Source of the DNA: Acholeplasma sp.
Lineage (GTDB): Bacteria; Bacillota_I; Bacilli_A; ML615J-28; CAG-698
Assembly: GCA_012838635.1 (NCBI GenBank)
Contig: DUOW01000011.1
Location: 4,882-68,881, forward strand
DNA length: 64,000 nucleotides
Reading direction: 5' to 3'
In this document: positions 15,301-48,632 of the stretch, one piece after another
How positions within the stretch are numbered: the stretch's first letter is position 1
Layout: each line of letters starts with the position of its first letter
The notes under the pieces: generated by a model
Database searches by the model: none
What the model saw: only the letters and a program-made list of their open reading frames with translations
What the model was told of the DNA's origin: nothing
Translations under genes and position numbers: made by a program

Positions 15301-15494
15301 TGGCAGTTTAAAGCCTTTGCAAAAATTCTTGCAATTGAAGTTTTACCTGTTCCTCTTGGCCCACTAAATAAATAAGCATGAGAAATTTTTCCTGTAATTA
15401 TTGAATTTTGTAATGTCTTGATAATAATGTCTTGACCAATAACTTCTGAAAATTTTTGGGGACGATATGTCCTATAAAGTGCTTTATAACCCAT
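12315..15494 (-). CDS. dnaX: DNA polymerase III subunit gamma/tau, unusually long (1059 aa)
   Basis: The N-terminal AAA+ region has GPRGTGKTS (Walker A), the zinc module CxxC...CxxC and the SRC motif. About 600 aa follow, containing coiled-coil and highly acidic D/E-rich low-complexity segments. Confidence 0.9.
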   Translation of the reverse strand: MGYKALYRTYRPQKFSEVIGQDIIIKTLQNSIITGKISHAYLFSGPRGTGKTSIARIFAKALNCHYVNKETGEPCSECTSCTEIAITTSPDVIEIDAASNNGVEQIRDIREKVKFLPSGARYKIYIIDEVHMLSGSAFNALLKTLEEPPAHAIFILATTEPNRVIPTILSRCQRFDFRPIAISDIYKHIKFVCEQENTKIEDEAAIALAESVEGAMRDALSYLDQAIALAEGEITLDIVNDITGNLSYDKLLEIAKHIEDKEIEKTLKAVTELYNLGKEALKMSSSLISLYRDILVYKSFQHEKNEKYIFQKEQFKELAKTIENNKIFYYVDILSDTQNKIKYSANPLIFLEVAIIKMINASSEDLDIVRRLNDLETRLEEGGSGTGGSSASVQNLERTVVRITSELSKLELPVLKNKVEALERKTANTLDVEDVRSVNTKLNTYEKEIKTLRGDLATLNPSYLEGRLKIIESKIEGKKFESSTPVSSNEVDPELLERIEELENKVKSFKASSNEVNVEEISKKVNELLKQSKAQGNEDLDILRARIDALEEAKPEEHIDNQNKVSTVGLADIERRVRQMEEQVYRLSAENYFEADQKRKPKRSSKKVSDNQIMFFGDEVITVSEFETRDEQDFDFGAIAKEEKEDLKHEETLEEDIELETTSEDDEQNLEQEEYELETEEQDNELEASDDYEDETLDEETYDAIEVEETEDEDSYGDGEIDKASMSYRLKYQADVKPGEISSGYIYKHEKNKDEYDITDAAYSADKDKNKALDKEVYNLFNVKPETKVKEDKKETYTTEDGVVVHSTHSTIVRKQSKDDYYEQKSMGLETQEVETEEPKVEEPVQKVQEEVKSIDSLADLIDLVEPKSAPAEPQPVEQAQTTKPVVKKDLNEEEAYENYSEEIILRIMIDALDKDAREDKRRIAELWPYLGESVLPQDVSVANLLKQGDVRAVGKNEIILVYESPMVCNQIMDRKTRRRALSILEDKLGAFYNYMALPESDFSEKREEFASSYLMGSIPKKLSPIRNPYLKNISNQKEKSITEELADIFGSEIVKTEE

Positions 15495-16808: not shown

Positions 16809-17075
16809 TTGACAAAAAAGCTGCATAATGATAAAATTAAACTATAAAGCGATGAATAGAAAAGTACTATAAAAATCATTTACAGAGATATGATGGTGGT
16901 GAGAATCATAATTATCTTTTATAGGAAAGAACACTAGGAGCTGTTAGAAGAAATTTAAGTAGAACTAACCGTAAACTTTGCGTTAAAAAGTCAAATGAGT
17001 ATTGCGTATTTTATACGAACTAAGGTGGTACCGCGGAAATTTTTCGTCCTTAAATTAATTTTTTAAGGACTTTTT
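16809..17075 (+). promoter_or_regulatory. Promoter (TTGACA-17-TAAAAT) plus T-box riboswitch leader of asnS
   Basis: -35 TTGACA at 16809..16814 and -10 TAAAAT at 16832..16837. The conserved T-box sequence AAGGTGGTACCGCG is at 17022..17036. The terminator hairpin CGTCCTTAAATTAATTTTTTAAGGAC plus UUUUU is at 17045..17075. A possible specifier loop, GAAAGAACACUAG, contains the Asn codon AAC. Confidence 0.75.
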
Positions 17076-17096: not shown

Positions 17097-18479
17097 ATGG
17101 ATTTATATTTACTAGACAAAAACTATAAACAACTAGAAAACAAAGAAATTACGGTTGAAGGTTGGGTAAGGTCAAACAGAGATCAAAAAGAATTTGGTTT
17201 TATTGCTTTATCTGATGGAACAACTCTAGGAACTTTGCAACTTGTTTATGATAACAAACTAGAAAATTTTAGTGAAGTATCAAAAATCAGAATTGGCTCA
17301 AGTATTACCGCTAAAGGAATAGTTGTTTTAACACCTAATGCAAAACAACTATATGAACTTAAAGTTACAAAATTAAAGTTAATTGGTGACTCTCCCGAAG
17401 ATTACCCAATCCAACCAAAAAGACATTCACGCGAGTTTTTAAGAGAACAAGCTTATTTAAGACCGAGAACTAATTTATTTAATGCTGTCTTTAGAGTAAG
17501 AAGCGTCCTTGCTTATGCAATTCATAATTACTTCTACGAAAACAGATTTGTCTACTTACATTCACCAATCATTACCGCAAGCGATGCAGAAGGTGCTGGA
17601 GATATGTTCCAAGTAACAACTTTAGATTTAGACAATTTACCAAAAACAAAAGACAAAAAAGTCGATTATTCTCAAGACTTCTTTAAAAAAGCAGCTCATC
17701 TAACTGTATCAGGACAACTTGAAGCTGAAACGTTTGCCACTGCATTTAAGAAAGTTTATACTTTCGGGCCAACATTTAGAGCAGAAAACTCCAACACACA
17801 ACGCCATGCTTCAGAGTTTTGGATGATTGAACCAGAAATTTGCTTTGCGGACTTAAACGATGATATGGCTTTAATTGAAGATCTTTTAAAATATGTAATT
17901 AGATATGTTTTAAAACATGCTAAAGAAGAAATGGACTTCTTTGATAAGTTTGTTGCTAAAGGTAAAATCAAAGAATTAGAAGCTTTCCTTGATTCAAAAA
18001 TTGCTGTTTGTACACATAAAAATGCAATTAAAATCATGAAAGAATCTGATCATAAATTTACAGAAAAACCTGAATATGGAAAAGACCTAGCAACAGAACA
18101 CGAAAAATACTTAACTGATATTCATTTTAAAGGCCCAGTATTTGTAATTGATTGGCCAAAAGATATCAAAGCATTCTATATGAGACTAAACGAAGATGGC
18201 GAAACAGTAGCAGCTGTAGACTTACTAGTTCCTGGTTGTGGTGAATTAGTCGGTGGAAGCCAAAGAGAAGAACGTTATGACTTACTAGAAAAACGTATGA
18301 AAGAAATGAACGTTCCTGTTGATGAAATGCAGTGGTATCTAAACTTAAGAAAATACGGTACTGTAAAACATGCAGGATTTGGTATTGGATTTGAAAGATT
18401 AGTGATGTATGTTACTGGTATTGAAAACATTAGAGATGTTTTACCATATCCAAGAACACCAGGAAATTGCGAATATTAA
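17097..18479 (+). CDS. asnS: Asparagine--tRNA ligase
   Basis: An N-terminal OB anticodon-binding domain and the class IIb core motifs (FRAE...GGSQRE...GFGIGFERL). 460 aa with an AsnS-like C-terminus. Confidence 0.85.
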   Translation: MDLYLLDKNYKQLENKEITVEGWVRSNRDQKEFGFIALSDGTTLGTLQLVYDNKLENFSEVSKIRIGSSITAKGIVVLTPNAKQLYELKVTKLKLIGDSPEDYPIQPKRHSREFLREQAYLRPRTNLFNAVFRVRSVLAYAIHNYFYENRFVYLHSPIITASDAEGAGDMFQVTTLDLDNLPKTKDKKVDYSQDFFKKAAHLTVSGQLEAETFATAFKKVYTFGPTFRAENSNTQRHASEFWMIEPEICFADLNDDMALIEDLLKYVIRYVLKHAKEEMDFFDKFVAKGKIKELEAFLDSKIAVCTHKNAIKIMKESDHKFTEKPEYGKDLATEHEKYLTDIHFKGPVFVIDWPKDIKAFYMRLNEDGETVAAVDLLVPGCGELVGGSQREERYDLLEKRMKEMNVPVDEMQWYLNLRKYGTVKHAGFGIGFERLVMYVTGIENIRDVLPYPRTPGNCEY

Positions 18480-27091: not shown

Positions 27092-27784
27092 ATGGAAAAA
27101 TTTTTACAAGAAAAGTACGAAGCTTTTAAAAAGCTTGCTGCTGAACGCTTTTCATACGATAAGATTGATTTAGAGTTTATTGTAGATTTGGTTTACAATT
27201 CACTTACTTTTGAAAGAAGAGTAGTTACTAGAGAAGATATCAAAAATATTTTGTCAGGTAAACACGAAAACTATGATGAAAATTTGGTAACTACTGCTGA
27301 AAATCATCGAAAAGCATTTTTGTTTATGGCGGATTTAGCTAAAAGAGGTGAACCACTTACAGAATCAAAATTAAAAGATTGCCATTCTATTTTAATGGAT
27401 GAGCACGGGGGAATGTATAGAACTTTTAATATTTCGATTCAAGGATCACAACATACTCCACCACCACACTACAAAATTTATGCTCGTATTGATGAATATT
27501 TTGAAGTTTTAAGAGGAGACGATCTTCCTATCAATAAAATTGCTTATAGTCACTTACAACTTGCAAAAATCCATCCCTTTTTAGATGGTAACGGAAGACT
27601 TGCTCGTCTAGTATTAAACTACTATATGTTGGTTTCTGGACTTGCTCCTATCATTATTCCTTCTGCAGATAAAGAAAAATATTTTCAATGCTTAGAAGAC
27701 TATAAAGTAAAAAAGACTACCCTTACTTTTATAAATTATTTAATTCAATTAGAAGAAGTTTCATTTGAAAAATACTTTAAATAA
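27092..27784 (+). CDS. Fic family protein (AMPylase), putative class II with N-terminal inhibitory motif
   Basis: Fic motif HPFLDGNGRLARL. An upstream SGKHEN segment fits the (S/T)xxxE(G/N) inhibitory-helix motif. 230 aa. No adjacent antitoxin ORF. Confidence 0.8.
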   Translation: MEKFLQEKYEAFKKLAAERFSYDKIDLEFIVDLVYNSLTFERRVVTREDIKNILSGKHENYDENLVTTAENHRKAFLFMADLAKRGEPLTESKLKDCHSILMDEHGGMYRTFNISIQGSQHTPPPHYKIYARIDEYFEVLRGDDLPINKIAYSHLQLAKIHPFLDGNGRLARLVLNYYMLVSGLAPIIIPSADKEKYFQCLEDYKVKKTTLTFINYLIQLEEVSFEKYFK

Positions 27785-30031: not shown

Positions 30032-30943
30032 TTATTCACTTTCTTGTTGATAAAAGTCTTTGGGGAAAGGAATTTCAAAAAGATAGTATTTTGTCTCTTT
30101 GTTTGTTTTATCATAATATTTTACTTTGAAGTATAAAGTTTCAGGATGTGTAACTTCTGTAATGTATTCATCTGTAAGTACATGCGAATTAATTACTTCC
30201 CCGTTATGATAGTTTCCTTCAAAATGATACAAACCAACAGTAGTATAAATTTCTCCATCTTTTGTTTCTACAAATCCTTGGATATCAAACTCATAGTTTT
30301 CTACTTTTGACCTAAAATCTAAATTGAAATAATAATCTGTTTTCCCTGCTTTTTCTTTAGGAACAAAATTCAATAAAAAGATATCATTTACTGTTTCTGG
30401 ATCAGTCACTTTTTCTTTTTTATTAAAAGTTAACATTGGTTCTGTGAATTTATAAACATATTCTTCTTTTGTTGTGTTACCTTCTTCGTTAGGTTCACTT
30501 TCTTCATAAAAGTGGACCATTGAAGTAAGTGTCTTTAAATCTGCTCCAGCTTTATTAGAAGCCATAATAAAAGAATTTGTATGGCCTGTACTGTCAACAG
30601 TTGAAAAATAATAAACTTTACCATCAACATAAGAGACATTATAACTAGATCTAAATAAGTCTACTTTAATTTCTGAGGTTCCCATAACATATCCTGTAAT
30701 ATAATGCCTGTTACTCAAAGGGTTTCCTTCAACATATTGTTCTTTAGATAATCTGTTACTTATCTTAATATAATTAAAATAACCTTTTTCATTATCTACA
30801 TGTTCTTCATAAGCTGGCGCTTGAAGAATTTCTTTTTCTTTAGTAACTGCAACACCAACAACCGCAGCTGAAAGTGCGTATATTAATAGGATTGCTAAAA
30901 TTACAAAATTATTTAATTTTTCTGGAAATCTAATTATTTTCAT
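30032..30943 (-). CDS. Membrane-anchored extracytoplasmic protein of unknown function (third gene of the nuclease operon)
   Basis: Likely start MKIIRFPEKLNNFVILAILLIYALSAAVVGVAV (signal anchor) with the RBS GAAGGAAG. The ORF-track 5' extension overlaps the upstream gene and was trimmed. Confidence 0.55.
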   Translation of the reverse strand: MKIIRFPEKLNNFVILAILLIYALSAAVVGVAVTKEKEILQAPAYEEHVDNEKGYFNYIKISNRLSKEQYVEGNPLSNRHYITGYVMGTSEIKVDLFRSSYNVSYVDGKVYYFSTVDSTGHTNSFIMASNKAGADLKTLTSMVHFYEESEPNEEGNTTKEEYVYKFTEPMLTFNKKEKVTDPETVNDIFLLNFVPKEKAGKTDYYFNLDFRSKVENYEFDIQGFVETKDGEIYTTVGLYHFEGNYHNGEVINSHVLTDEYITEVTHPETLYFKVKYYDKTNKETKYYLFEIPFPKDFYQQESE

Positions 30944-31412
30944 CTTTTTTCTTCCTTCTTGTTCTTCTTTTCTTTTTTTCTTTAATTGTATAGTCTCCAA
31001 TAATAATATTTCCATTTTCTTCTTCAATAATTATAGTATCTTGTTCTAAATAAACAAATCCTGAATTAGGAAAGTTTTCAATACCTAAAATAGAAAAAGG
31101 AAATAGCTTGTTTTTACCATATTTAGTTATATTCAAAATACAAATGGTTTTTGTTTCTAAGATTATCTCATGAATAACTTTTCTTTTAGAATATAACGAT
31201 AGGTTGCCTTTTGGGGAAAAAGTATATAAAGTAATGCCTTGGCATTTAATTTTCTTTAATTTTTCTGGTTGTTCATTTTTTCTATTAAACTTACTAATTA
31301 CTTTTTCAGCCCACTTTTTACAATAAGGTTTATTAGCAACCGCATAATAGATATCTCCTATATAATAATAACCCGGTTTTAAGACTAGATCTTTCTTTTT
31401 CCTAAAACACAT
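30930..31412 (-). CDS. Small cytoplasmic protein with poly-Lys/Arg C-terminal tail (middle gene of the nuclease operon)
   Basis: 160 aa. No signal peptide. C-terminus KEKKKRRTRRKKKDENN. Its start overlaps the stop of the nuclease gene by 11 nt, suggesting translational coupling. Confidence 0.5.
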   Translation of the reverse strand: MCFRKKKDLVLKPGYYYIGDIYYAVANKPYCKKWAEKVISKFNRKNEQPEKLKKIKCQGITLYTFSPKGNLSLYSKRKVIHEIILETKTICILNITKYGKNKLFPFSILGIENFPNSGFVYLEQDTIIIEEENGNIIIGDYTIKEKKKRRTRRKKKDENN

Positions 31413-32616
31413 ATGTATACTCTTCCTTATAGTAGTAGATTGGTTTAACCCTTAATTTTGTTAGTTCATCTATCGTTTTGCCTTCCCAAATTAAGTGAAC
31501 ATATTCTGGTTTATCAATAAATGGATTGCGGTTGTTTTGTTCTTGGCTAATAATATCATTTCTTTGAAGTTCAAAATCATCAACTGGATCTTCGCGATGC
31601 CATTTTAATAATATAGGCAATAATCCCATTTTAGCTCCAGATAATTGATATGTTTCTCCAGTCAATAACTCGGCTGCTGTTTCTACTAAACTTAACTCAT
31701 TATACATTACATCCATATAAAATAAGATTCTTGCTACATCTCCTTTATGCTCATCGCCTGGAAACCAAGAAGTAGAAGTAACGGCTCCGTATGTTGTTGT
31801 TTCAGTTGTTGGATTATCAAAATATGAATTTCCTCTTGAAGAGTTTACACTTTGAACAATAGCTCTTAAATTATGTAAGTCACTAGCTTGATTTCTAGTA
31901 CTATTAGTAATTTTATCAGTCTCTGTTCCTAAACGTGATCGTGGCCAAACGTGTTCTCTTGTCCAACTAGTTCCGTCCCATGTGGCATCGATTTTATCCC
32001 CACTATAGATTGTCCAAACTTTTGTTGGGTCTTCTAAATCAGCATCAGCTCTACCTAAAATCTCTCTAGCATCTCCATAAGTTCTTGGAGTAAAGTTTTC
32101 TCTCATGATACTATTAAGTTCTCTTCTTAAGTCTTCGCCTTCTTTGTTGTTAGCAGAAGCATAATAAGTTCCTTTGGCTTCCTCAATATATATATAAAAA
32201 CCATCATCATTAGTTTCGTCATTAGGCTCTAACTTAAAAACAGTAATTTTATATGTGTTAGATATCTTACCGACTGTTATGGTAACGTCGGTCTTCCCAA
32301 CTTGATGGGCTGTCATCTTTCCCGTTTGATCAATTGATAAAATTTCTGGATTGCTTGAAGTAAAACTTGCTTCATTATACTCAGCTGCCGTTTCGGGAAT
32401 AGTCTTATATGTTATCGTTTGACTAGCGTCAACACTAATATTATATTTATCTATTCTAACTTCTAAATCCCTAACAGTTCGAGGTTCTAAATATAAAAAC
32501 CAAATAGCAAGAAAAATTAAAACTAAAACAACTAAAATTATTCCGCCAATAGATAAAGAAGATATCTTTTTAGCAGCTTTTTTTGCTATTTTTACGTTAT
32601 CTTTCTTTTTAGCCAT
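31402..32616 (-). CDS. Secreted/membrane-anchored nuclease of the Endonuclease I (EndA/Vvn) family with Big_2-like domain
   Basis: N-terminal TM anchor (ISSLSIGGIILVVLVLIFLAIWFLYL) and a Big_2-like segment (ILSIDQTGKMTAHQVGKTDVTITV). Motifs EHVWPRS, DLHNL and NSSRGN fit the Endonuclease_1 catalytic signature. Confidence 0.55.
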   Translation of the reverse strand: MAKKKDNVKIAKKAAKKISSLSIGGIILVVLVLIFLAIWFLYLEPRTVRDLEVRIDKYNISVDASQTITYKTIPETAAEYNEASFTSSNPEILSIDQTGKMTAHQVGKTDVTITVGKISNTYKITVFKLEPNDETNDDGFYIYIEEAKGTYYASANNKEGEDLRRELNSIMRENFTPRTYGDAREILGRADADLEDPTKVWTIYSGDKIDATWDGTSWTREHVWPRSRLGTETDKITNSTRNQASDLHNLRAIVQSVNSSRGNSYFDNPTTETTTYGAVTSTSWFPGDEHKGDVARILFYMDVMYNELSLVETAAELLTGETYQLSGAKMGLLPILLKWHREDPVDDFELQRNDIISQEQNNRNPFIDKPEYVHLIWEGKTIDELTKLRVKPIYYYKEEYTYVF

Positions 32617-32817
32617 GAAACCACCTCGTTATTCATTATATCATTTTTTTTGCTTTTTTCAATCTTTATAATTAACATTTCCACATTGATAAATTGTTTA
32701 TTCTTTATTAAAAAGTTTTCCTTGCTTTTTACACTGTGGAAAAGTAGATAAAAATTATTTAATTTTTATGTTTATTATTCTTTCTTTTTGTGGTATCATA
32801 TATGGGAGGAGTTCAGT
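32617..32817. promoter_or_regulatory. oriC part 1: DnaA-box cluster and dnaA promoter region
   Basis: ATTTCCACA, TTTTACACT and TGTGGAAAA (the reverse complement of TTTTCCACA) lie within 170 bp upstream of dnaA. Gene-strand bias switches here. Confidence 0.55.
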
Positions 32818-34209
32818 ATGAGTAATTTAGATATGGAAAATGCTTTAAACATTTGGCAAAAGACGCTCGAGCATTTAAAAACTGAAATAGATGACATTTC
32901 TTATAATGATTTGTTTTCTAAAACAAAAGAAGTTTTTAAAGTTAAAGATAGTACAATCTGGATTATCGTTGATAGTACTTTAACAAAATTTAGAATTGAT
33001 AAATTTTATAAAAATAGTATTAACGATTTTGCTTTAAATAATTTTGGTTGTCATTTTACTTTCATTGAATGTAAAGAAGCAGAAGAACAAAAAAGTAAAG
33101 TAGATTTAGTAAATACTACACAAACAGATATCGAAAACAGCAAAAAACCAAGATCTTTGCTCCCTGAATATTCTTTCGACAATTTCGTTATTGGAGAAAG
33201 CAATCGTTTTGCTTTTCTAGCAGCAACTAAAGTAGCTAACGATCCTGTACCAGTTTTAAACCCACTATATATCTTTGGTGGTGTTGGTTTAGGAAAAACG
33301 CATCTTATGTTTGCGGTAGGTAACGAAATCTTGCAATTTAAACCAGAAACAAATGTTGTTTACACAACAGCACAACAATATGCTCAAGATTACTTTACAG
33401 CTTCTAGTAGTAAAGATCCTAAAGCTTTTCAAAAGTTTTATGATTATTATCAATCAGCTGATGTCTTGTTAGTTGATGATATTCAGTTCTTAGAACAAAA
33501 AACAAAAACACAAGAAGAGTTTTTTAAATTATTTGAGCTTTTATATACTGAAAAGAAAAAAATGGTTGTTACATCAGATAGACCAGCTAATCAACTTCAA
33601 AACTTTATGGACAGGTTAAAGAGCAGATTAAGCTATGGTTTAGCTGTAGATATTAAAAAACCAGATAAAAACTTAAGATTAGGTATCTTACAAAAGAAAC
33701 TTCCAACTCATATCCCTAATCCAGAAGATGTTCCGATTGAAGCGTTAGAATTAATTGCTGAAATTTACGAAGATCGCAACGTTAGAGAATTAGAAGGTGC
33801 TTTGAGTAGATATATTTGGTATTGTGTGTCGGCTAATCTTCCTTTCACAAAAGAAAATGTTTATCCAATTTTAGAACCGTTAGTTAAAGGTATGGGTAAA
33901 GAAGGAGCTCCGGCCGACGTTAAGGTAAGAGATATAAAAGAATTGGTAGCTAGTTATTATCAAGTTTCGGTTTCTGAATTAGAATCTGAATCAAGAAAAG
34001 CAAAAATTGTTTTCGCAAGACAAATGGCTATTTATTTAATTAGAACTCTTTATGACTTACCATTAAAACAAATAGGTAGTTATTTCGGAAATAGAGATCA
34101 TGCCACAGTATCTTATTCAATCGATAAAATTGAAAAAGATATGAAGCAAAATAAAGGCATAAAACAAGATATTATATATCTAACTCATAAAATTCAAGGT
34201 GAAAAATAA
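32818..34209 (+). CDS. dnaA: Chromosomal replication initiator DnaA
   Basis: AAA+ Walker A GGVGLGKTHL, box VII, and a C-terminal DNA-binding helix (SRKAKIVFARQMAIYL...GNRDHATV). The start was set at the ATG at 32818, which has a GGGAGG RBS. Confidence 0.95.
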   Translation: MSNLDMENALNIWQKTLEHLKTEIDDISYNDLFSKTKEVFKVKDSTIWIIVDSTLTKFRIDKFYKNSINDFALNNFGCHFTFIECKEAEEQKSKVDLVNTTQTDIENSKKPRSLLPEYSFDNFVIGESNRFAFLAATKVANDPVPVLNPLYIFGGVGLGKTHLMFAVGNEILQFKPETNVVYTTAQQYAQDYFTASSSKDPKAFQKFYDYYQSADVLLVDDIQFLEQKTKTQEEFFKLFELLYTEKKKMVVTSDRPANQLQNFMDRLKSRLSYGLAVDIKKPDKNLRLGILQKKLPTHIPNPEDVPIEALELIAEIYEDRNVRELEGALSRYIWYCVSANLPFTKENVYPILEPLVKGMGKEGAPADVKVRDIKELVASYYQVSVSELESESRKAKIVFARQMAIYLIRTLYDLPLKQIGSYFGNRDHATVSYSIDKIEKDMKQNKGIKQDIIYLTHKIQGEK

Positions 34210-34281
34210 AAGTTATTAACATTTCCACATATGCTAATAATAATAAAAAAATAAATATAAATATAAAAGGAGAAATAAATT
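34210..34281. promoter_or_regulatory. oriC part 2: dnaA-dnaN intergenic DnaA box plus AT-rich unwinding element
   Basis: ATTTCCACA followed by AATAATAATAAAAAAATAAATATAAATATAAAA. Confidence 0.5.
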
Positions 34282-35409
34282 ATGAATGTTACAATTAACA
34301 GAGATTTATTGTTAGAGAACTTAACTAACGTAAGTAGAGCTCTATCAACAAAAACACCAATGCCGGTGCTTACTGGAATCAAATTCGAAATCACAAAAAA
34401 CAAAATGTACTTAACAGCTTCAAATAACGAAATATCAATTCAAGCACAACTAAACGAAGGAAACAAACTAAAGCTTGAAGGAGAAGGAAGTTTTGTTGTA
34501 CCAGGCAAAATATTAAGTGATATTATTAGAAAACTAGATGCAAACGAAGTTCAATTCAAAGTTGTAGAAGATAATGTAATTAAAATTTATGCTAATAGAA
34601 GCGACTTTACTTTAAATGCATTAGAAAAGGATAACTTTCCGTTAATCTCATTTGCTGAATCAAACACATTTATTAAATTAGACATTGGAACATTAAAACA
34701 AATTATTAGAAAAACAACATTTGCTACATCTTTATCAGAATCAAGAGCTATTCTTACTGGTGTTTGCTTAAACTTATCTAACAATAAATTAGAAGCTATC
34801 TCTACGGACAGCTTTAGATTAGCAAAGATATATTTAAATGTTAACGAAGAACTACCAGAATTATCTGTAGTAATCCCTTCAAAAAGCTTAGACGAACTAA
34901 ACAAAATTATTATTGACGACAATGAGAACGATATTGAATTACACTTCTCACCAACAAAGATCCTATTTAAGTATAAGAACTTGTTATTCCAATCAAGATT
35001 AATTGATGGCGTTTATCCAAATACATCTAGTTTAATTCCAACTGAATTCTTAACAAGTATCAAGTTTAATAAAACAGAACTTATTAAAACTATTGATTTA
35101 ATGTCGCTATTTACTAACATTGAATCATCAAACATTATTCAATTACAACTAAACCCAGACAAAACAGTTGAAATCAAATCAACAACAAGTGAAATTGGCG
35201 AAGGTAAAGAAGAACTAATTCCATTAGAGTGTTCTAATCCTGTTTCATTTAAGATAGCTTTTAGCGCTAAATACTTCTTAGAAGCTGTTAGATCGTTTGA
35301 TTCTTCTGAAATAGTTGTTCATTTTACTGGCGAAATCAAACCATTTATCGTTACTGGTGAATATGATGTTAACTTAACTCAATTAATTCTACCAGTAAGA
35401 GTATCTTAA
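34282..35409 (+). CDS. dnaN: DNA polymerase III beta sliding clamp
   Basis: 375 aa, three-domain clamp. Begins MNVTINRDLL..., typical of DnaN. Synteny with dnaA. Confidence 0.9.
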   Translation: MNVTINRDLLLENLTNVSRALSTKTPMPVLTGIKFEITKNKMYLTASNNEISIQAQLNEGNKLKLEGEGSFVVPGKILSDIIRKLDANEVQFKVVEDNVIKIYANRSDFTLNALEKDNFPLISFAESNTFIKLDIGTLKQIIRKTTFATSLSESRAILTGVCLNLSNNKLEAISTDSFRLAKIYLNVNEELPELSVVIPSKSLDELNKIIIDDNENDIELHFSPTKILFKYKNLLFQSRLIDGVYPNTSSLIPTEFLTSIKFNKTELIKTIDLMSLFTNIESSNIIQLQLNPDKTVEIKSTTSEIGEGKEELIPLECSNPVSFKIAFSAKYFLEAVRSFDSSEIVVHFTGEIKPFIVTGEYDVNLTQLILPVRVS

Positions 35410-35424
35410 TTAACATACAATAAA

Positions 35425-35452
35425 AAAAGAGGTGTAATAACCTCTTTTATTT
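35425..35452. terminator. Bidirectional terminator between dnaN and parA-like gene
   Basis: Hairpin AAGAGGT-GTAATAA-CCTCTT flanked by an A-run and a T-run. Confidence 0.55.
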
Positions 35453-36331
35453 TTTCTTTTTTAAGTTTAAAACAACTTTTTCTTGCGGCTGTTCTTGAGC
35501 AGCTGCTTTTTTACTTAATTTCTCTTCATGTTCGTCTACACTTTTAAAGATCCCTAACAATTCTTTTCTTACTTTTAAAGTTTCGGTCAAATCATAACGA
35601 GTTTCAAATACTTCATTTTTGTCAAAAGGAGTCTTACCTTGAGTTTGAATGTTTTGAATTGTTGATTTCTCTGAAAAATAAGGCAATATTAAAGCGTTTA
35701 ATCCCATTGTTCTTGAAAATTCTTTGGCTTGTTTATCCAATGTTTGTAAAGAATCTTTAGGAGCTCTTCTATTTGCAATAAATTTATTAGGTAAAATGTA
35801 TTGAATCTTACTAATAGGAATGTCTTGGTCCACAAAAAACTGGATAGTATTAATAAACCCATCAATCCCCATACTATCTAAACTAATAATTAAGATAATT
35901 CTATCACTATAATCCAACAAAACTTCTGTAGCTCTACAGCTAGAAGGTGGGAAATCAAGCAAAACATAGTCGAAATTCTCGTTATAGACATCAATAATGT
36001 TAAATAAGATCTTTTCTGTAGGTCTTTTTGTAATTAATTCTGTAGATAAAGCATCTGTATTTAAAGTTTTTATTAAATATAAGTTTTCTCTTACTTCATG
36101 TAATACTTCATCAAACGTCCTTTGTCCTACCATTAGGTACTCTAAATAGTCATCATTTCTTGCTGTAACAAGATCTTGGCGTCCAAAAAGAGTAAAAATA
36201 CTATTTTGATCATCAATACTGATGACTAAAACAGTCTTTTTCTTTACTTCTGTTAAATAATGAGCTAAATAACCAATAAACGTTGTTTTACCAACGCCAC
36301 CTTTCTTACAATATGTCGAAATAATGGCCAT
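35447..36331 (-). CDS. parA: ParA/Soj-type partition ATPase (deviant Walker A)
   Basis: KGGVGKTT deviant Walker A at residues 9 to 16. 294 aa. Encoded immediately after a small RHH gene and next to iteron arrays. No parB is present in the window. Confidence 0.8.
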   Translation of the reverse strand: MAIISTYCKKGGVGKTTFIGYLAHYLTEVKKKTVLVISIDDQNSIFTLFGRQDLVTARNDDYLEYLMVGQRTFDEVLHEVRENLYLIKTLNTDALSTELITKRPTEKILFNIIDVYNENFDYVLLDFPPSSCRATEVLLDYSDRIILIISLDSMGIDGFINTIQFFVDQDIPISKIQYILPNKFIANRRAPKDSLQTLDKQAKEFSRTMGLNALILPYFSEKSTIQNIQTQGKTPFDKNEVFETRYDLTETLKVRKELLGIFKSVDEHEEKLSKKAAAQEQPQEKVVLNLKKKK

Positions 36332-36334
36332 ATT

Positions 36335-36679
36335 CTATAATTTAACTCCCATTAATCGTAAATGACGTATAACAGCCTCTTCTACAAACTCAGAAAAAGT
36401 AACTCCTTGCTTCATTGCAGCTATTTTTGCCTCAGATCTAACAATGTGAGCCATAGTTGCAGTGTATTTTACCTTTTTATTCCCTCCATATACGTCATAA
36501 ATCTCATCTTTTTTCGATTTAGTAGGGGTTACTGTCCTAGAAACAGGTTCTTTTTGATAAACTACAGGTTCTTCAACAACTGGTTCTGATAGAGTCTCTT
36601 CCTTAATAATTTCTGCTACATTTACAGTTTTATTTAGGCCCGATAAAGGACTTTGGCCTCTTTTTTTAATTTTTCCCAT
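36335..36679 (-). CDS. Small ribbon-helix-helix DNA-binding protein (ParG/omega-like centromere-binding candidate)
   Basis: 114 aa. A disordered basic N-terminus. The C-terminal KVKYTATMAHIVRSEAKIAAMKQGVTFSEFVEEAVIRHL fits a beta-strand, helix, helix RHH fold. Separated from parA by a 3-nt gap. Confidence 0.6.
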   Translation of the reverse strand: MGKIKKRGQSPLSGLNKTVNVAEIIKEETLSEPVVEEPVVYQKEPVSRTVTPTKSKKDEIYDVYGGNKKVKYTATMAHIVRSEAKIAAMKQGVTFSEFVEEAVIRHLRLMGVKL

Positions 36680-36720
36680 CTTTTTTCACTCCTTTTTCTT
36701 ATAAAAATCACAATTTTAGT

Positions 36721-36840
36721 CAAAAACCATAAAAACATTTATACATTTTTACACAAAACCTTATAACCATTTATATGTTTTTACATTTATACACAAAACC
36801 ACATTTACATTTATACACTTATACATAAAAACATACTTTT
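36721..36840. repeat. Promoter-proximal iteron array: 4 to 5 direct copies of CATTTATACA(C/T) with two ACACAAAACC half-sites
   Basis: Copies at 36736, 36768 (variant), 36784, 36808 and 36818 (extended to TATACATAAAAACATAC). They sit 40 to 160 bp upstream of the RHH-parA operon start. Confidence 0.7.
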
Positions 36841-37835
36841 TTAAGGTCATTTTTTAGGCGATTTTAAGCTTTTAAAACTCGTTTTTTCCTGAATTTTAAA
36901 AATATTGCTTCCTAAAAAAGGGAAATATTTTTTAGCGCTCAAAAAAACATTTTGAATTTAAATTAAGCTAGATTTTTGACCCCCAGTAAAGTATTTATTA
37001 AGGCCGATTCTTAAAAACGCTTAAAAACGAAATTTGAAAGGTTGCAAAAAACTGTTTTTTGCCATATACAGGGGTTTTAAGGCCTTTTAAAAAGACAAAT
37101 ATACATAAAACCATACAGCTGTATATATGGTTTTATGGGTATACATAAAACCATATTAAGAAATGTTGGTTAAAAACAAATTTTTTGTTTTTTTTGGTCT
37201 TTTATTGAGACTATTATACACAATAAAAACATAAAAAGCAATACATAAAGCCATAAAAATGCAAAAAAAAGCACTTTTTATAGCTTTAAAAACGAGTATT
37301 TTCCGGATCTGACGTTTAATACAACAAAAACAACCAAATAAGAGTTGAAATAAGGCTAAAATCAGAAGAAAAACAATATAAATAAAGCTAAAAAGTTAGA
37401 AAATACGCCAGTTTAAGCGTTAGAAAAACCATAAAACTGAAAAACAAACATGATTTTGGCCTTAATAATAAAGAAAACATAATATTTTCAGCGTTTTAAG
37501 GTCCATTTATACATAAAACCATACACAAAAGAGCATTAAATTATGCTTTTGGAAGTAAAAAAACAGGTTTATATGTAAAATGGTTAATAAAAGGGTAAAA
37601 TTATATATTTAATGACCTTAAAATAAGAAATATACATAAAACCATACTCAGAAAAGCTAAAATGTTATGCTTTTTAAAGACGTAAAATAAGAATTTAACA
37701 TAATACACACAATTAATGGACGATAATTTACTTTTTTCAAGAATAAAACATCTTTATATCCAAAATCATACCCAACGAAAGATCCCAAACACCAATTAAC
37801 AACAACAAAAACGAAGTTTATACATAAAACCATAC
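36821..37835. repeat. Dispersed 17-mer family TATACATAAAACCATAC (5 exact + 2 degenerate copies) in a 1.5-kb non-coding island
   Basis: Exact copies at 37100..37116, 37140..37155, 37508..37524, 37631..37647 and 37819..37835. Degenerate copies at 36821..36836 and 37241..37255. An inverted copy lies at 37126..37140. No ORF of 60 aa or longer spans the region. Confidence 0.8.
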
Positions 37836-38237
37836 AGCTTCTTTTAAATAAAAGTAGGAAAACTAAGCTTTAATACAAGATTTGTTTCACTTATTGGGTT
37901 CTATATTCTATATTATTCCTTTTAATGGTTAAATTATCTATTAATTATTCATAAAAGCAGTTATAAACCATCTTTTTGTGTTTTATATTTCAACTTAAAC
38001 CATTTTTAAATAAAAAAGGCAAATAAAACAAGATATTGTTAAAAAACGCAACTAAAACGAAAATAAACGAGTTTTTTGGCTCAATAAATATAATTGGAAA
38101 GATTTTAATAAAAGTCTTTAAAAATAAGCGAAAATGTGGTATAATATCTATGAATTATTCAGGAATTAAAAATGGTTCAAAAGTTTATTTAATAGACCGT
38201 TTTATCCGTTTATTTATAAAAGATAATGGAGAAAGAG

Positions 38238-39323
38238 ATGTTTTATATTGAAAAGCTGAAATTAACCAACTTTCGTTGTTATAAAGATAAAAGAATAAAT
38301 TTTAAACCTCATGTTAATATAATAGTAGGGGAAAATGCTGTTGGTAAAACATCTTTAGTGGAAGCTATTTATTGTCTAGGACTTACCAAATCATACAAAG
38401 CAAGCAAAGATTCTTTTTTAATTAAACATGATCAACCTTTTTATGTGTTAGAAGGTGAATTTGTCAATCAAGAAAGAAAGCACAATGTTTTGTTATCATA
38501 TGAAATAGATAAATCAAGAAAAAGATTATTAGTTGATAATAATGTGGTTAAAAAGTTAAGTGATTATATAGGGACATTTAAAGTTGTTATGTTTTCTCCT
38601 GATGATTCTGAACTAATAAAAGGCTATTCTCCTCAACGAAGAAGATTCTTAGATATTTATTTAGGCCAAATTAATAATAAGTATTTAAAAGATTTATCTA
38701 ATTACAACAAAGTGTTAAAAAATAGAAATGAGTTATTAAAGCAAACTAATCAAAGCGAGCAAGATTTAGAACTCTTAAAGATCTATTCCGAAGCTTTAGT
38801 AAAATACGGCAAAAACCTAATTATTGAAAGAGAAAAGTTTATTAATATGCTTAATCCAGAAGTGGCAAAAATTAGTTTAGCTATCTCTAATGGAGAAGAA
38901 AAAACTGAACTAAAATATATGCCAAATGTGGAAAACGAAGAATTTATGTTGAAAACTTTTCGACAACTTAAAAAAGATTTGTATTTACAAACAACAGGGC
39001 TTGGACCTCATAAAGATGACTTCTTATTTACAATAAAAGGGGTTGATGCAGCATCGTTTGCTTCACAAGGCCAACAAAGAACATCTAGTATAGCTTTAAA
39101 GTTAGGTCTAGCTAGTTTGTTTGATAAATTGGGTTTAGATAATATCGTAATTTTAGATGATGTTTTTAGCGAATTAGATAAAGAAAGACAAAACGAGATT
39201 ATGAAACTCTTTAAAAACAATAAACAAATATTTATTACAACCACAACAATCAAGGCAATTAATGAAGAATTGCTTGAAAGTAGTAATGTTATTAAAATAG
39301 AAAGGGAAGAAAAAGATGAGTGA
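38238..39323 (+). CDS. recF: DNA replication and repair protein RecF
   Basis: Walker A GENAVGKTS. SMC-like ABC fold. Start at the ATG at 38238 (RBS GGAGAAAGAG). An extended -10 TGTGGTATAAT lies at 38125..38135. Confidence 0.9.
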   Translation: MFYIEKLKLTNFRCYKDKRINFKPHVNIIVGENAVGKTSLVEAIYCLGLTKSYKASKDSFLIKHDQPFYVLEGEFVNQERKHNVLLSYEIDKSRKRLLVDNNVVKKLSDYIGTFKVVMFSPDDSELIKGYSPQRRRFLDIYLGQINNKYLKDLSNYNKVLKNRNELLKQTNQSEQDLELLKIYSEALVKYGKNLIIEREKFINMLNPEVAKISLAISNGEEKTELKYMPNVENEEFMLKTFRQLKKDLYLQTTGLGPHKDDFLFTIKGVDAASFASQGQQRTSSIALKLGLASLFDKLGLDNIVILDDVFSELDKERQNEIMKLFKNNKQIFITTTTIKAINEELLESSNVIKIEREEKDE

Positions 39324-46139: not shown

Positions 46140-46721
46140 ATGCTTAATGGCAAAGTTAGTAAAGTTCAAGAACTAGCAATAGCTTCAATTATGGTAGCAA
46201 TGGCTGCCGTTTTGTCATTCTTTGATAAAACAATTAGCACAATTGCGTTTCCTTTTTTACCTGTTGCTAAAATAGGGCTAGCAAATATCGTTATTTTAAT
46301 TGCTATTTATATTTTTGATTTTAAAACTAGTTTATTAATTACTGTTTTAAAATCAGTTGTTGTTGGTTTAATATTTGGAAGTTTAAGTACTTTTATTATT
46401 GGTGGAAGTGCTAGTTTAGTTAGTTTCTTGGGGATGTTTTTAACCCACAAATTACTAAAAGATAAGACATCGCTGGTAGGGGTAAGTGTAATTGGAGGAT
46501 TTCTTCATATTATTACCCAACTTTTTGTGGTAATGTTTGTTTATCGTACGGGAGATGCGGTTTTTAAATCTGGTGCATTATTAGTACTAATATCTTTAAT
46601 TACGAGTATACTAGTAGGTCTAGCAGGTAATGGTTTATATAAATACTTACAAATCCATTATCACTTAACTCCTGAATTAGAAATTAAAGGAACAGAAGAA
46701 GGAGAAAAAAATGAACATTAA
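46140..46721 (+). CDS. Polytopic membrane protein, putative ECF-transporter S-component-like
   Basis: Start at the ATG at 46140, which has the RBS AAGGAAAGGTG and an extended -10 TGGTAGAAT upstream. Five to six TM helices. Weak resemblance to S-component proteins. Confidence 0.4.
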   Translation: MLNGKVSKVQELAIASIMVAMAAVLSFFDKTISTIAFPFLPVAKIGLANIVILIAIYIFDFKTSLLITVLKSVVVGLIFGSLSTFIIGGSASLVSFLGMFLTHKLLKDKTSLVGVSVIGGFLHIITQLFVVMFVYRTGDAVFKSGALLVLISLITSILVGLAGNGLYKYLQIHYHLTPELEIKGTEEGEKNEH

Positions 46722-47658
46722 AGCAATTAAAGAAAAAGTAGAACAATACGATCTTATTATTATTGAAAGACATGCAAATCCTGATGGCGATGCAATGGGA
46801 AGTCAATTGGGTTTAAAAGCAATTTTAAAAGAAAATTATCCAAACAAAAAAATCTATGCTGTTGGTGATACTAATAATCGTTTTGATTTTATGGGTAAAA
46901 CAGAAGAAATAGATATCGAATTATATGAAAAAGCATTAGTTTTTGTCTTAGATTCATCTACCGACGAAATGCTATTAAATAATAATTATAAAAATGCAAA
47001 TTTCTCAATAAAAATAGATCATCATAATACTGTAAGTGATTATTGTGATTTAAATTATACAGATACGAGTTTTGAAAGTTGTGCAGGAATGATTGCGCAA
47101 ATTGCTTTAGATTTAGATTGGAAAATAAATAAGGAAGCAGCAACACAATTATATACAGGTATTGTTACTGATAGTGGTCGTTTTCGTTATGATAAAACAA
47201 CAGCAAGAACTTTTGCAATTGCCTCTAAACTTATGGAGTATGAGATAGATATTGATAACATCTATTCCAATCTTTATCTTGAAAGTTTAGCTAGCGTTAA
47301 ATTAAAAGCAAAATTAATTAATGAGTTTAAGATTACAGAAAATAAAGTAGCTTATCTAAAAGTTACCAAAAAAGATGTAGAAGCATATGGCATTTCGCCT
47401 CATAATATAGCTAGAGGATATGTGAATATTATGGCTGGTATTAAAGAAATTGAAATTTGGGCGATGTTTGTAGAAGATGAAGAAAATAACCAAATCTTAT
47501 GTGAGTTTCGTTCATCTAAACACAATATTAATCAAGTTGCTGTTAAATATGGTGGAGGTGGCCATTTACTTGCAAGTGGGGCTAAAGTTGCAAGTTTTGA
47601 GATTTGTAAAAAGATTATTGAAGATTTCAATAAACTAGTTGCAGGGAGTGAAAAATGA
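46711..47658 (+). CDS. nrnA: DHH/DHHA1 phosphoesterase, NrnA-like (paralog 1)
   Basis: DHH motif HANPDGDAMGS. DHHA1 GGGH motif (GGGGHLLASG). Confidence 0.8.
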   Translation: MNIKAIKEKVEQYDLIIIERHANPDGDAMGSQLGLKAILKENYPNKKIYAVGDTNNRFDFMGKTEEIDIELYEKALVFVLDSSTDEMLLNNNYKNANFSIKIDHHNTVSDYCDLNYTDTSFESCAGMIAQIALDLDWKINKEAATQLYTGIVTDSGRFRYDKTTARTFAIASKLMEYEIDIDNIYSNLYLESLASVKLKAKLINEFKITENKVAYLKVTKKDVEAYGISPHNIARGYVNIMAGIKEIEIWAMFVEDEENNQILCEFRSSKHNINQVAVKYGGGGHLLASGAKVASFEICKKIIEDFNKLVAGSEK

Positions 47659-48632
47659 AAGAAATAAAAAAACAAATTTTGAAGAAAATTAAAGAATATG
47701 ATAGTATTATCATCTTAGGTCATCAAAGACCAGATGGGGATTGTATTGGTTCTGTTTTAGGTTTGAAAGATATCTTAAATACATCTTTTCCTAAGAAAAA
47801 AGTCTATGCCCCTGCTAATGATTCAGTTAGTTATTTAGATTTTTTAGAATCAAGAGAAAAAGAACTACAACCAGAAATATATCAAGAGTCTTTAGTTATT
47901 GTTTTAGATACAGCTACTAAAGAAAGAATTGATAGTAAATATTATCATCTAGCAAAAGAAACAATAAAAATAGATCATCATCTTCCTGTTGATGATTACG
48001 GCGATATCAATTATGTTGATGTTAAAGCACCAGCAACAGCAGAAATTATTGTTGATTTCTTACTAACTTTTAAAAAGCAATTAAAACTTACTAGTAAAGG
48101 CGCTAAAGCATTATTTACAGCTTTAATAACTGATACTGGAAGGTTTAGATATAGTAGTGTCACTTCTAAAACTTTAGAAGTTGGTGCTTATTTACTTACT
48201 TATGATGTAGATTTTGAAAAGATTTATAATAATTTATATTTAAAAGATCTAGAAGTTTTAAAATTAGAAGGTTATTTGAACTTGAATTTTAAAACTACAG
48301 AAAATGGTGTTGCATATTTTTATATTGATAAAAAAATTAGAAATCAGTATAATATAAGTATTGAAGATGCAGCATCGTTAGTTAATTGTTTAGACTCAAT
48401 TAAAGGCAGTCTAATTTGGGTCTTGTTTGTGGAACAAGAAGATGGTACAATTAGGGCTAGAATAAGAAGTAGATATGTAACTATCTCTGATGTAGCTAAT
48501 AATTATCGAGGTGGTGGGCATAAACAAGCTAGTGGTGCTACTCTATTAGAAGAAAAAGAAATTACTTTAATTTTAAAGGAATTAGATATGAGATTAAAGG
48601 AATTTAAAAAAGAAAACGGAGGATTAATGTAA
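47655..48632 (+). CDS. DHH/DHHA1 phosphoesterase, NrnA-like (paralog 2)
   Basis: HQRPDGDCIGS and RGGGHKQASG motifs. Overlaps the upstream paralog by 4 nt. Confidence 0.8.
   Translation: MKEIKKQILKKIKEYDSIIILGHQRPDGDCIGSVLGLKDILNTSFPKKKVYAPANDSVSYLDFLESREKELQPEIYQESLVIVLDTATKERIDSKYYHLAKETIKIDHHLPVDDYGDINYVDVKAPATAEIIVDFLLTFKKQLKLTSKGAKALFTALITDTGRFRYSSVTSKTLEVGAYLLTYDVDFEKIYNNLYLKDLEVLKLEGYLNLNFKTTENGVAYFYIDKKIRNQYNISIEDAASLVNCLDSIKGSLIWVLFVEQEDGTIRARIRSRYVTISDVANNYRGGGHKQASGATLLEEKEITLILKELDMRLKEFKKENGGLM

Follow-up and report, generated by a model that had tools for sequence, protein, structure and literature searches.

The stretch of DNA analysed here, 64,000 bp of an Acholeplasma sp. chromosome (GenBank assembly GCA_012838635.1, contig DUOW01000011.1, positions 4,882 to 68,881; hereafter the window), carries between dnaN and recF a module of two small genes and a long repeat-rich tract, which we think is probably a vertically inherited, origin-proximal system for partitioning the chromosome or positioning its origin, built like a type Ib plasmid partition system. 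A wider proposal, held more tentatively and at slightly less than an even chance, is that a ribbon-helix-helix (RHH)-based, ParB-independent ParA system segregates the chromosome origin, or positions it, throughout a large clade made up of Acholeplasmatales, RF39 and related wall-less 'Bacilli', with a hard-wired kilobase field of boxes phased at 8 bp beside oriC as the centromere, in the role that belongs elsewhere to CTP-dependent spreading of ParB; this would be the first bacterial chromosomal counterpart of type Ib and SegAB. The open reading frames (ORFs) called on the plus strand as dnaA (32788-34209) and dnaN (34282-35409) are followed on the minus strand by an ORF of 294 aa (parA, 35447-36331) and one of 114 aa (rhh, 36335-36679), the rhh stop codon being 3 nt away from the parA start codon. 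Between rhh and recF (38226-39323, plus strand, with gyrB and gyrA next on the same strand) lies a tract of 1,546 bp (36680-38225) without any conserved ORF of at least 60 aa. A first-pass annotation of the window had described a ParA-type deviant Walker A ATPase and a small RHH protein in opposite orientation next to an ORF-free, repeat-dense tract of ~1.5 kb; the two proteins are borne out by Pfam, profile and AlphaFold2 (AF2) evidence, and the tract by its length and by the confinement of its 17-mer repeats.

To place the module in its lineage one genome per GTDB species was scanned, in which 123 stretches encode a ParA relative; the best 80 were retrieved, with 79 of these loci reaching dnaN and 57 reaching recF. 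The relatives are metagenome-assembled genomes (MAGs) labelled Acholeplasmataceae, Acholeplasmatales, Mollicutes, Tenericutes or Bacilli, together with gut 'CAG' genomes, which are usually placed in RF39. ParA identity across the 80 relatives runs from 83% down to 44%, and wherever a locus is long enough to show it, dnaA-dnaN is followed by parA and rhh on the opposite strand, a gap, and then recF-gyrB-gyrA. The gap between rhh and recF measures 1.3-3.7 kb in the relatives, and the longest ORFs associated with it, of 68-147 aa, have sizes that fit rhh and, in 57 loci, yaaA. The module had initially been regarded as inserted between two normally contiguous genes, and neither part of that description survives the comparison: the same cassette occupies the same place in 80/80 relatives, and in Firmicutes yaaA usually separates dnaN from recF, an S4-domain yaaA of 68 aa standing directly before recF in 57 related loci and likewise in Bacillus subtilis. 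Because the position is shared by 80 relatives and there are no close plasmid or viral homologues, the module is, judged by its distribution, ancient and vertically inherited in the clade and not a recent insertion; any capture from a mobile element would at most have been an ancient one, in the common ancestor of the clade. No account of the module turned up in a full-text search of the literature.

The 294-aa protein is a ParA-superfamily ATPase. It matches Pfam AAA_31 at 9.8e-23, and its deviant Walker A motif KKGGVGKT (residues 9-16, encoded at 36284-36307) is invariant in 22 homologues, as are the Walker A' and Walker B residues. The AF2 model (predicted local distance difference test, pLDDT, 85.5) has a confident ParA/MinD fold, and the protein is small (294 aa, ~260 in relatives), consisting of a single domain of that fold without the N-terminal helix-turn-helix (HTH) of type Ia. 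The top structural neighbours in the PDB are McdA, ParA, Soj, MinD, delta and ParF, the last at fold rank 46, and include Borrelia PF32, FlhG and MipZ. In a sequence search of solved structures the best match was Helicobacter pylori Soj (E 1.7e-7), with another ParA at ~1e-7, and ParF and delta gave no match. No family cut-off in NCBIfam was reached, the best being the plasmid ParA PrgP at 45.8 bits against a cut-off of 400. By sequence and fold the protein is about equally distant from Soj, McdA, PF32, MinD, delta and ParF, so that the label 'plasmid-type' which it had been given does not hold. Its C-terminal tail of ~30 aa (residues ~262-294, encoded at 35450-35548, with the sequence ...EEKLSKKAAAQEQPQEKVVLNLKKKK) is lysine-rich and could add nonspecific affinity for DNA or membrane; a similar tail occurs among 22 aligned homologues only in one close relative (P0002) and in P0086.

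An integrated partition or replicon cassette from a plasmid or other mobile element had also been offered as an interpretation, and the type Ib-like anatomy, together with the weak PrgP match, would suit such an origin. Searches of plasmids, viral contigs and PHROG for a mobile origin returned distant ParA matches only: in PLSDB the best ParA was 28-30% identical and the RHH protein was without a match, while IMG/VR held no relative, and neither rep, nor integrase, nor flanking repeat was found at the module. Since close plasmid and viral relatives are lacking and position and orientation are identical in 80/80 relatives whose proteins have diverged down to 44%, we regard a captured cassette as highly improbable.

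The 114-aa protein is a ribbon-helix-helix protein, as judged from a profile match, the Pfam families of its orthologues, its AF2 model and Foldseek. Searched singly, it had no Pfam match and only four matching proteins in a word-indexed database. Orthologues were taken as the ORF ending at the parA start in each of the 80 related loci, where such a small ORF was present in 80/80, and a profile was built from 52 of them. Against the PDB this profile found the RHH regulator SvtR (2kel) at 1.4e-8, with no match to ParG, omega or SegB. Pfam families matched among the 52 orthologues are RHH_10 (25), 56B_RHH (19), RHH_3 (16), Omega_Repress (12) and ParG (2). The protein matches anticipated in the first-pass annotation were found as regards RHH families, with weak Omega_Repress and ParG matches in orthologues, and not as regards any specific relation to ParF or ParG. 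AF2 modelled two helices (residues 78-91 and 95-110) with pLDDT >90 after an extended segment (70-77), the N-terminal two-thirds of the protein being disordered (pLDDT <70). Foldseek neighbours were nearly all RHH proteins (Arc, CopG, antitoxins, NikA, PutA), with root-mean-square deviations of 0.6-1.3 Å over ~35 residues; the E-values were weak, as is to be anticipated when a domain of 45 residues is modelled as a monomer.

The family shares an architecture of a basic N-terminal K/R motif, a P/Q/E/V-rich linker of variable length and the C-terminal RHH domain (residues ~68-111 in the window protein, encoded at 36347-36478), with the consensus REKYTATMDxxLRxRIKIAAxxxGxxxSxFIEEAxxEKLEREG. The N-terminal motif PFKKRxNP[LF], which in the window reads MGKIKKRGQSPL, is present in 77/80 predicted ORFs, and K6, R7 and P11 are invariant or nearly so. 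Threading onto CopG places K71, T73 and T75 at what we take to be the DNA-facing positions of the beta-strand, and these residues too are invariant or nearly invariant across the family. The family is small and discrete: of 1.84 billion representatives 66 reach E<=1e-10, and beyond these the matches drop off steeply; the named members of the cluster are all from MAGs and public records label the proteins 'hypothetical protein'. On these features the 114-aa protein is a candidate centromere-binding protein and autorepressor.

The repeats of the tract are built on an 8-bp unit, a tetramer box [T/A][A/C]CA followed by a 4-bp AT spacer. The main array consists of 14 consecutive units (36726-36837, plus strand, read in register from 36726), of which 12 match this form, running ACCATAAA AACATTTA TACATTTT TACACAAA ... 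TACATAAA AACATACT. No more than 47 bp separate the array from the rhh start codon, so that the array must overlap or adjoin the rhh-parA promoter, and from this sequence arrangement it is presumed to be both operator and core centromere. Beyond an iteron-free spacer of ~260 bp (36838-37099) there follow three clustered 17-mer double units, the outer two direct and the middle one inverted (37100-37156, conserved in the two closest relatives, L001 and L002) and, on the plus strand, a degenerate cluster TTATACACAA...AATACATAAAGCCATAAAAA (37214-37262), a perfect 17-mer TATACATAAAACCATAC preceded by one further unit (37502-37524) and perfect 17-mers at 37631-37647 and 37819-37835, the last being the most distal copy. 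The 17-mer corresponds to two units and occurs in four perfect and two one-mismatch copies, all within 36820-37835 and none elsewhere in the 64 kb. The tract repeats are far beyond chance, phased double units numbering 16 in the 1.5-kb tract and 6 in the remaining 62 kb.

The same organisation recurs across the relatives, in which arrays lie at the same position upstream of the operon. Over 58 tracts, same-strand TACA/ACCA pairs 8 bp apart number 325 against 15.8 in shuffles (~20-fold), with further peaks in box-pair distance at 16, 24, 32 and 40 bp, and double units of the window type occur at 3.06 per kb in tracts as compared with 0.185 per kb in flanks; single genomes hold up to ~40 iteron copies. 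Relative to L001 and L002, whose ParA is 83% identical, the main array and first clusters are kept while much intervening DNA has diverged, and in blastn and nhmmer searches of tract blocks against all loci only these two closest relatives matched beyond the iterons. Even the most distant loci, the RF39-like ones, retain the box core [T/A][A/C]CA beside the rhh promoter, though only 2-4 TACA/CCA boxes are left there, in a strongly conserved segment just upstream of the promoter -35 (TATATACATACAGCCATAAAAAAATAAATATTGC). A different repeat, GTTTTAAATTAAAAC, fills the RF39-like tracts every ~32 bp (L045, L057, L062, L064, L073, L075, L079).

These repeats might alternatively be low-affinity DnaA boxes bound by DnaA, forming a datA-like or cluster titration site or an additional part of oriC. 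In keeping with this, TTATACACA, present at 36787 and 37214, agrees with the relaxed DnaA-box consensus of A. laidlawii, TT(A/T)T(A/C/T)(C/A)ACA (PMC3322544), the tandem boxes of oriC share the 8-bp period, and genuine DnaA boxes are present elsewhere in the tract of a few relatives. Most units, however, are either of ACCAT type or have A at box position 5 and T in place of C at position 8, while the same genomes keep a near-perfect TTATCCACA or TTTTCCACA at oriC and lack a perfect box in 53 of 57 tracts; moreover the densest array lies exactly where the operator of an RHH autorepressor would be expected. Binding by DnaA is on this evidence a very unlikely account of the array. The window tract itself holds no perfect DnaA box and two with one mismatch. 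The few relatives with a separate DnaA-box cluster have it in the part of the tract near yaaA or recF: in L010 three near-consensus boxes (TTTTCCACA), of which two form an inverted pair, lie apart from the iterons on the yaaA/recF side, ~1.27-1.33 kb away from the rhh start, and the tracts of L022 and L034 carry several near-consensus boxes.

The origin itself can be recognised on either side of dnaA. Its left half comprises the boxes ATTTCCACA (32677-32685) and TTTTCCACA (32735-32743, minus strand) upstream of dnaA, and an unwinding module, read from the sequence of the dnaA-dnaN spacer (34213-34268, plus strand), consists of tandem degenerate boxes TTATTAACA / ATTTCCACA (34213-34229), the spacer TATGC, the trios TAATAATAATAA (34235-34246) and an AT-rich run that extends from the trios up to the dnaN ribosome-binding site. 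The dnaA-dnaN spacer of practically all related loci, 70-190 bp long, shows the same succession, GTTATCCAC-TTATCCACA, 4-5 nt, TAATAATAATAA (TAATAATAA...) and an AT-rich stretch. By definition a basal unwinding system has DnaA boxes in tandem, followed after a short spacer by three or more NAN trios and then by an AT-rich region (PMC8287927), and by its sequence the dnaA-dnaN spacer fits this definition. In A. laidlawii a DnaA-box region upstream of dnaA alone replicates a plasmid, which is quickly lost without selection (PMC10805103), so that replication and stable inheritance are separable functions.

With a complete unwinding module in every dnaA-dnaN spacer and DnaA boxes rare in most tracts, the suggestion that the tract is a second origin-like element is not upheld. 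GC skew, proposed at the outset as a check on origin function, does not alter this. A cumulative minimum was found at 37-38 kb, a minimum that the two minus-strand genes after dnaN would produce; third-position skew over ~80 loci is equal in dnaN (-0.17) and parA (-0.165), which lie on opposite strands. The signal reflects coding-strand composition and not a replication switch, and skew was discarded as an origin locator.

Within the 64-kb window the statement that ParB and parS are missing is confirmed. The 16-bp parS palindrome TGTTNCACGTGAAACA was matched at only four places in the 64 kb, each with 3 mismatches and none of them close to the locus, a number that does not exceed chance expectation, the ParB boxes GERRxRA and ENxQRxxL were not found in a six-frame translation of the window, and no ParB domain was found in the 30 other window ORFs scanned. 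A review describes par genes as missing from Mycoplasmataceae chromosomes (PMC7022226), and ParB may likewise be absent genome-wide in the present clade. The first-pass annotation had held that its partition reading would be weakened if relatives universally carried the cassette as an ordinary soj with a known partner: carriage is indeed universal, while the partner is not the known partner of Soj. Among the three interpretations that it offered, an origin-segregation system in a lineage not using ParB at this place is the one that fits the evidence.

As the array and rhh-parA operon match in anatomy the experimentally defined organisation of plasmid TP228, a mechanism can be proposed. The rhh-parA operon would be transcribed leftward from a promoter overlapping the array of 14 tetramer boxes phased at 8 bp, with one RHH dimer predicted to bind each box via the beta-strand residues K71, T73 and T75. 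Dimers would coat the array cooperatively, both repressing the operon, which would thereby be autoregulated, and nucleating a partition complex to which at least eight further box clusters over ~1.1 kb would recruit more dimers. This would build a large and hard-wired nucleoprotein complex at a distance of 2.5-3.6 kb from the site of unwinding in oriC, with no need for a spreading or sliding ParB. The basic N-terminal peptide PFKKRxNP[LF], carried on the disordered linker, would contact nucleoid-bound ParA-ATP dimers and stimulate hydrolysis, which in turn would drive a diffusion-ratchet separation of sister origin regions. The two protein folds, the catalytic motifs, the layout and place of the repeats, the shared synteny and the unwinding module in the dnaA-dnaN spacer are seen directly; binding of the boxes by the RHH protein, autoregulation, stimulation of the ParA ATPase and a role of the module in segregation are inferred from this anatomy.

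Several observations weigh against a partition or origin-positioning system of this kind. The ParA cannot be assigned to any subfamily or clade, plasmid Ib included, and the gene order, rhh then parA, is the reverse of parF-parG. Some repeat units look like weak DnaA boxes. The RF39-like relatives keep few boxes, near the promoter, and another repeat dominates their tract; because of this the long box field may be inessential to the system. A beta-strand variant, KFTSVM (L048, L062), is found with TACA/ACCA boxes retained, this one natural variant giving no covariation signal. The search for ParB covered the 64-kb window only. Finally, a conserved element of the tract that is distinct from the iterons lies outside what the proposed mechanism accounts for.

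This element is a block at ~36945-37070, situated in the iteron-free spacer between the main array and the distal clusters and including the core GACCCCCAGTAAAGTATTTATTAAGG at 36978-37003. In many relatives it is recognised as AAATTT..TAnAATCGATTTT, then GGTAAAGTTATTAG, a GC-rich stretch and AAAACAAACCAAGCGAAA, located ~250-370 bp from the rhh start and recurring at ~50% ParA identity; in RF39-like genomes the GC-rich stretch takes the form of CCCCC..GGGGG palindromes. Some RF39-like relatives (L045, L064, also L038, L046, L060, L061) have a C5-6/G5-6 palindrome ~250-300 bp from the rhh start. The block had no Rfam match, and RNAalifold gave zero consensus pairs over 14 orthologous segments. 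A small encoded protein was considered and rejected, a frame being kept between L005 and L011 but interrupted by in-frame stops in L033 and L007. It may act as a second promoter or be bound by some further protein.

Two further accounts keep the RHH protein as a regulator of its own operon and give ParA a different task. In the first, the pair mainly regulates the initiation of replication, with ParA acting on DnaA as Soj does in B. subtilis, the RHH protein being its autoregulator and activator and the repeats a regulatory or titration platform beside oriC, with no centromere that is itself moved. Such a role is plausible from the location: in every relative the module adjoins dnaA-dnaN and the unwinding module, Soj is known to control DnaA in B. 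subtilis (PMC7022226), and the RF39-like relatives, with promoter-proximal boxes and few distal ones, have an arrangement that would suit such a regulator. Yet a contact between ParA and DnaA is without support in this analysis, and the dozens of dispersed sites in most Acholeplasmatales-like tracts exceed the needs of an operator. We consider it unlikely that regulation of initiation is the main role, although the two roles are not mutually exclusive.

In the second, ParA positions a cargo other than the chromosome or is a division regulator like MinD or MipZ, and the RHH protein is an operon repressor only. That McdA, MinD, FlhG and MipZ are among the closest structural neighbours, and that this ParA belongs to no defined subfamily, would be consistent with such a role; it would nonetheless leave unexplained why phased boxes extend for a kilobase past the promoter, why the basic peptide at the N-terminus of the RHH protein is strictly conserved and why the location beside oriC is fixed, and we give it little credence. 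The origin-proximal partition or positioning system set out above is the reading we prefer.

The right-hand limit of the tract is a block of ~190 bp conserved with L001 and L002, which contains before recF a promoter-like site with the extended -10 TGTGGTATAAT (38117-38145, plus strand). When window positions 37975-38225 were compared with the 57 related loci, yaaA proved to be missing from the window and from L001 and L002, and yaaA-like sequence was found nowhere in the 64-kb window. Rfam searches, at gathering thresholds for the whole window and at E-value thresholds for the tract, returned an unrelated T-box and noise only.

To the left of dnaA lie genes for endonuclease I, two unknown proteins, rnpA, yidC, jag, a Fic gene and mnmE, and the rsmG-noc-soj-spo0J block is missing there. 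The endonuclease I gene (31402-32616, minus strand), immediately upstream of dnaA, encodes a Big_2 domain and a hydrophobic N-terminal segment, and its product is possibly exported. Between it and rnpA are two overlapping ORFs (30032-31027 and 30930-31412) with no Pfam match, and a Fic/DOC-domain gene (27092-27784, plus strand) lies on the opposite strand between jag and mnmE. Elsewhere in the window the dnaX ORF, for the clamp-loader tau/gamma subunit (12315-15494, minus strand), is 1,059 aa long, much longer than is usual for dnaX, with Pfam domains only over the first ~363 residues. The T-box leader (16843-17054, plus strand, 121 bits) is preceded by a split chromate-transporter gene pair and stands upstream of a class II aminoacyl-tRNA synthetase gene of Asp/Lys/Asn type (17097-18479). 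Two tandem DHH/DHHA1 phosphoesterase paralogues (46711-48632, plus strand) precede surE.

What is known of ParA-driven chromosome segregation in bacteria comes almost wholly from systems with ParB and parS, in which ParB is a clamp, dependent on CTP, that spreads outward from a few sites. The RHH-based type Ib kind is regarded as peculiar to plasmids, and the one chromosomal exception in the literature searched was archaeal SegAB. If the proposal is true, chromosomes can use many fixed binding sites in place of spreading, the clade would amount to a natural experiment on the required size of a partition complex, and both 'hypothetical protein' entries and a long noncoding tract passed over by annotation pipelines would gain a function. 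The bacteria with the module are ecologically abundant in the gut and in anaerobic digesters. The idea is directly testable, the RHH protein being small and its sites predictable, and an unstable A. laidlawii oriC plasmid already exists (PMC10805103).

Compared with known systems, the type Ib-like architecture noted in the first-pass annotation, an RHH protein, a ParA and upstream iterons, is borne out by the anatomy of both ParF/ParG/parH and delta/omega. In TP228 the OF site has 8 boxes and parH 12 boxes of ACTC, with 4-bp AT-rich spacers, and one ParG dimer binds per box cooperatively; OF doubles as operator and centromere, and ParF is recruited and activated through the flexible tail of ParG (PMC3130281). 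The module shares with TP228 a small ParA that lacks a DNA-binding domain at its N-terminus, an RHH protein whose N-terminal tail is flexible and an array of tetramer boxes with 4-bp AT spacers upstream of the operon. It differs in being chromosomal, beside oriC and lineage-wide where TP228 is plasmid-borne, in its box ([T/A][A/C]CA against ACTC), in having rhh before parA, and in the spread of its clusters over 1-3 kb against ~160 bp. There is no specific sequence relation, the ParG model matching 2/52 members (E 0.016) and ParF giving no sequence match. With delta/omega of pSM19035 the module shares a ParA, an RHH protein with an unstructured N-terminus, arrays of short direct or inverted repeats that overlap promoters and, in pSM19035 as several parS arrays, dispersal of such arrays on the replicon. 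Of the RHH orthologues, 12/52 weakly match Pfam Omega_Repress. The repeats are heptads there and octads here, sequence similarity is marginal (best E 3.7e-4), and omega, encoded separately from delta, acts as a plasmid-wide regulator.

Like Soj/Spo0J, the module includes an origin-proximal chromosomal ParA with an expected role in origin segregation and possibly in control of DnaA. The partner is an RHH protein and not an HTH/CTPase ParB, the window lacks 16-bp palindromic parS, and the module lies between dnaN and recF and not in an rsmG-noc-soj-spo0J neighbourhood; its complex would rest on many hard-wired sites and not on ParB spreading. With type Ib systems the module has in common the small ParA, the RHH partner with a flexible tail and, at the level of sequence, the upstream repeat array, while plasmid carriage and specific homology to ParF/ParG, delta/omega or PrgP/PrgO are absent; the module would work like type Ib and is not classed as a plasmid type Ib member. 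In SegAB of Sulfolobus the RHH protein SegB binds sites upstream of segAB (PMC9178275), and no other chromosomal pair of a ParA-like ATPase and a site-specific RHH protein is well studied (PMC9178275; PMC8682754). SegAB is archaeal, SegB binds few palindromic sites (S1, S2) and the order is segA-segB; SegA and SegB chains were not among the PDB sequence or profile matches, the resemblance being one of organisation only. By that analogy archaeal SegAB would be the closest chromosomal counterpart of the module.

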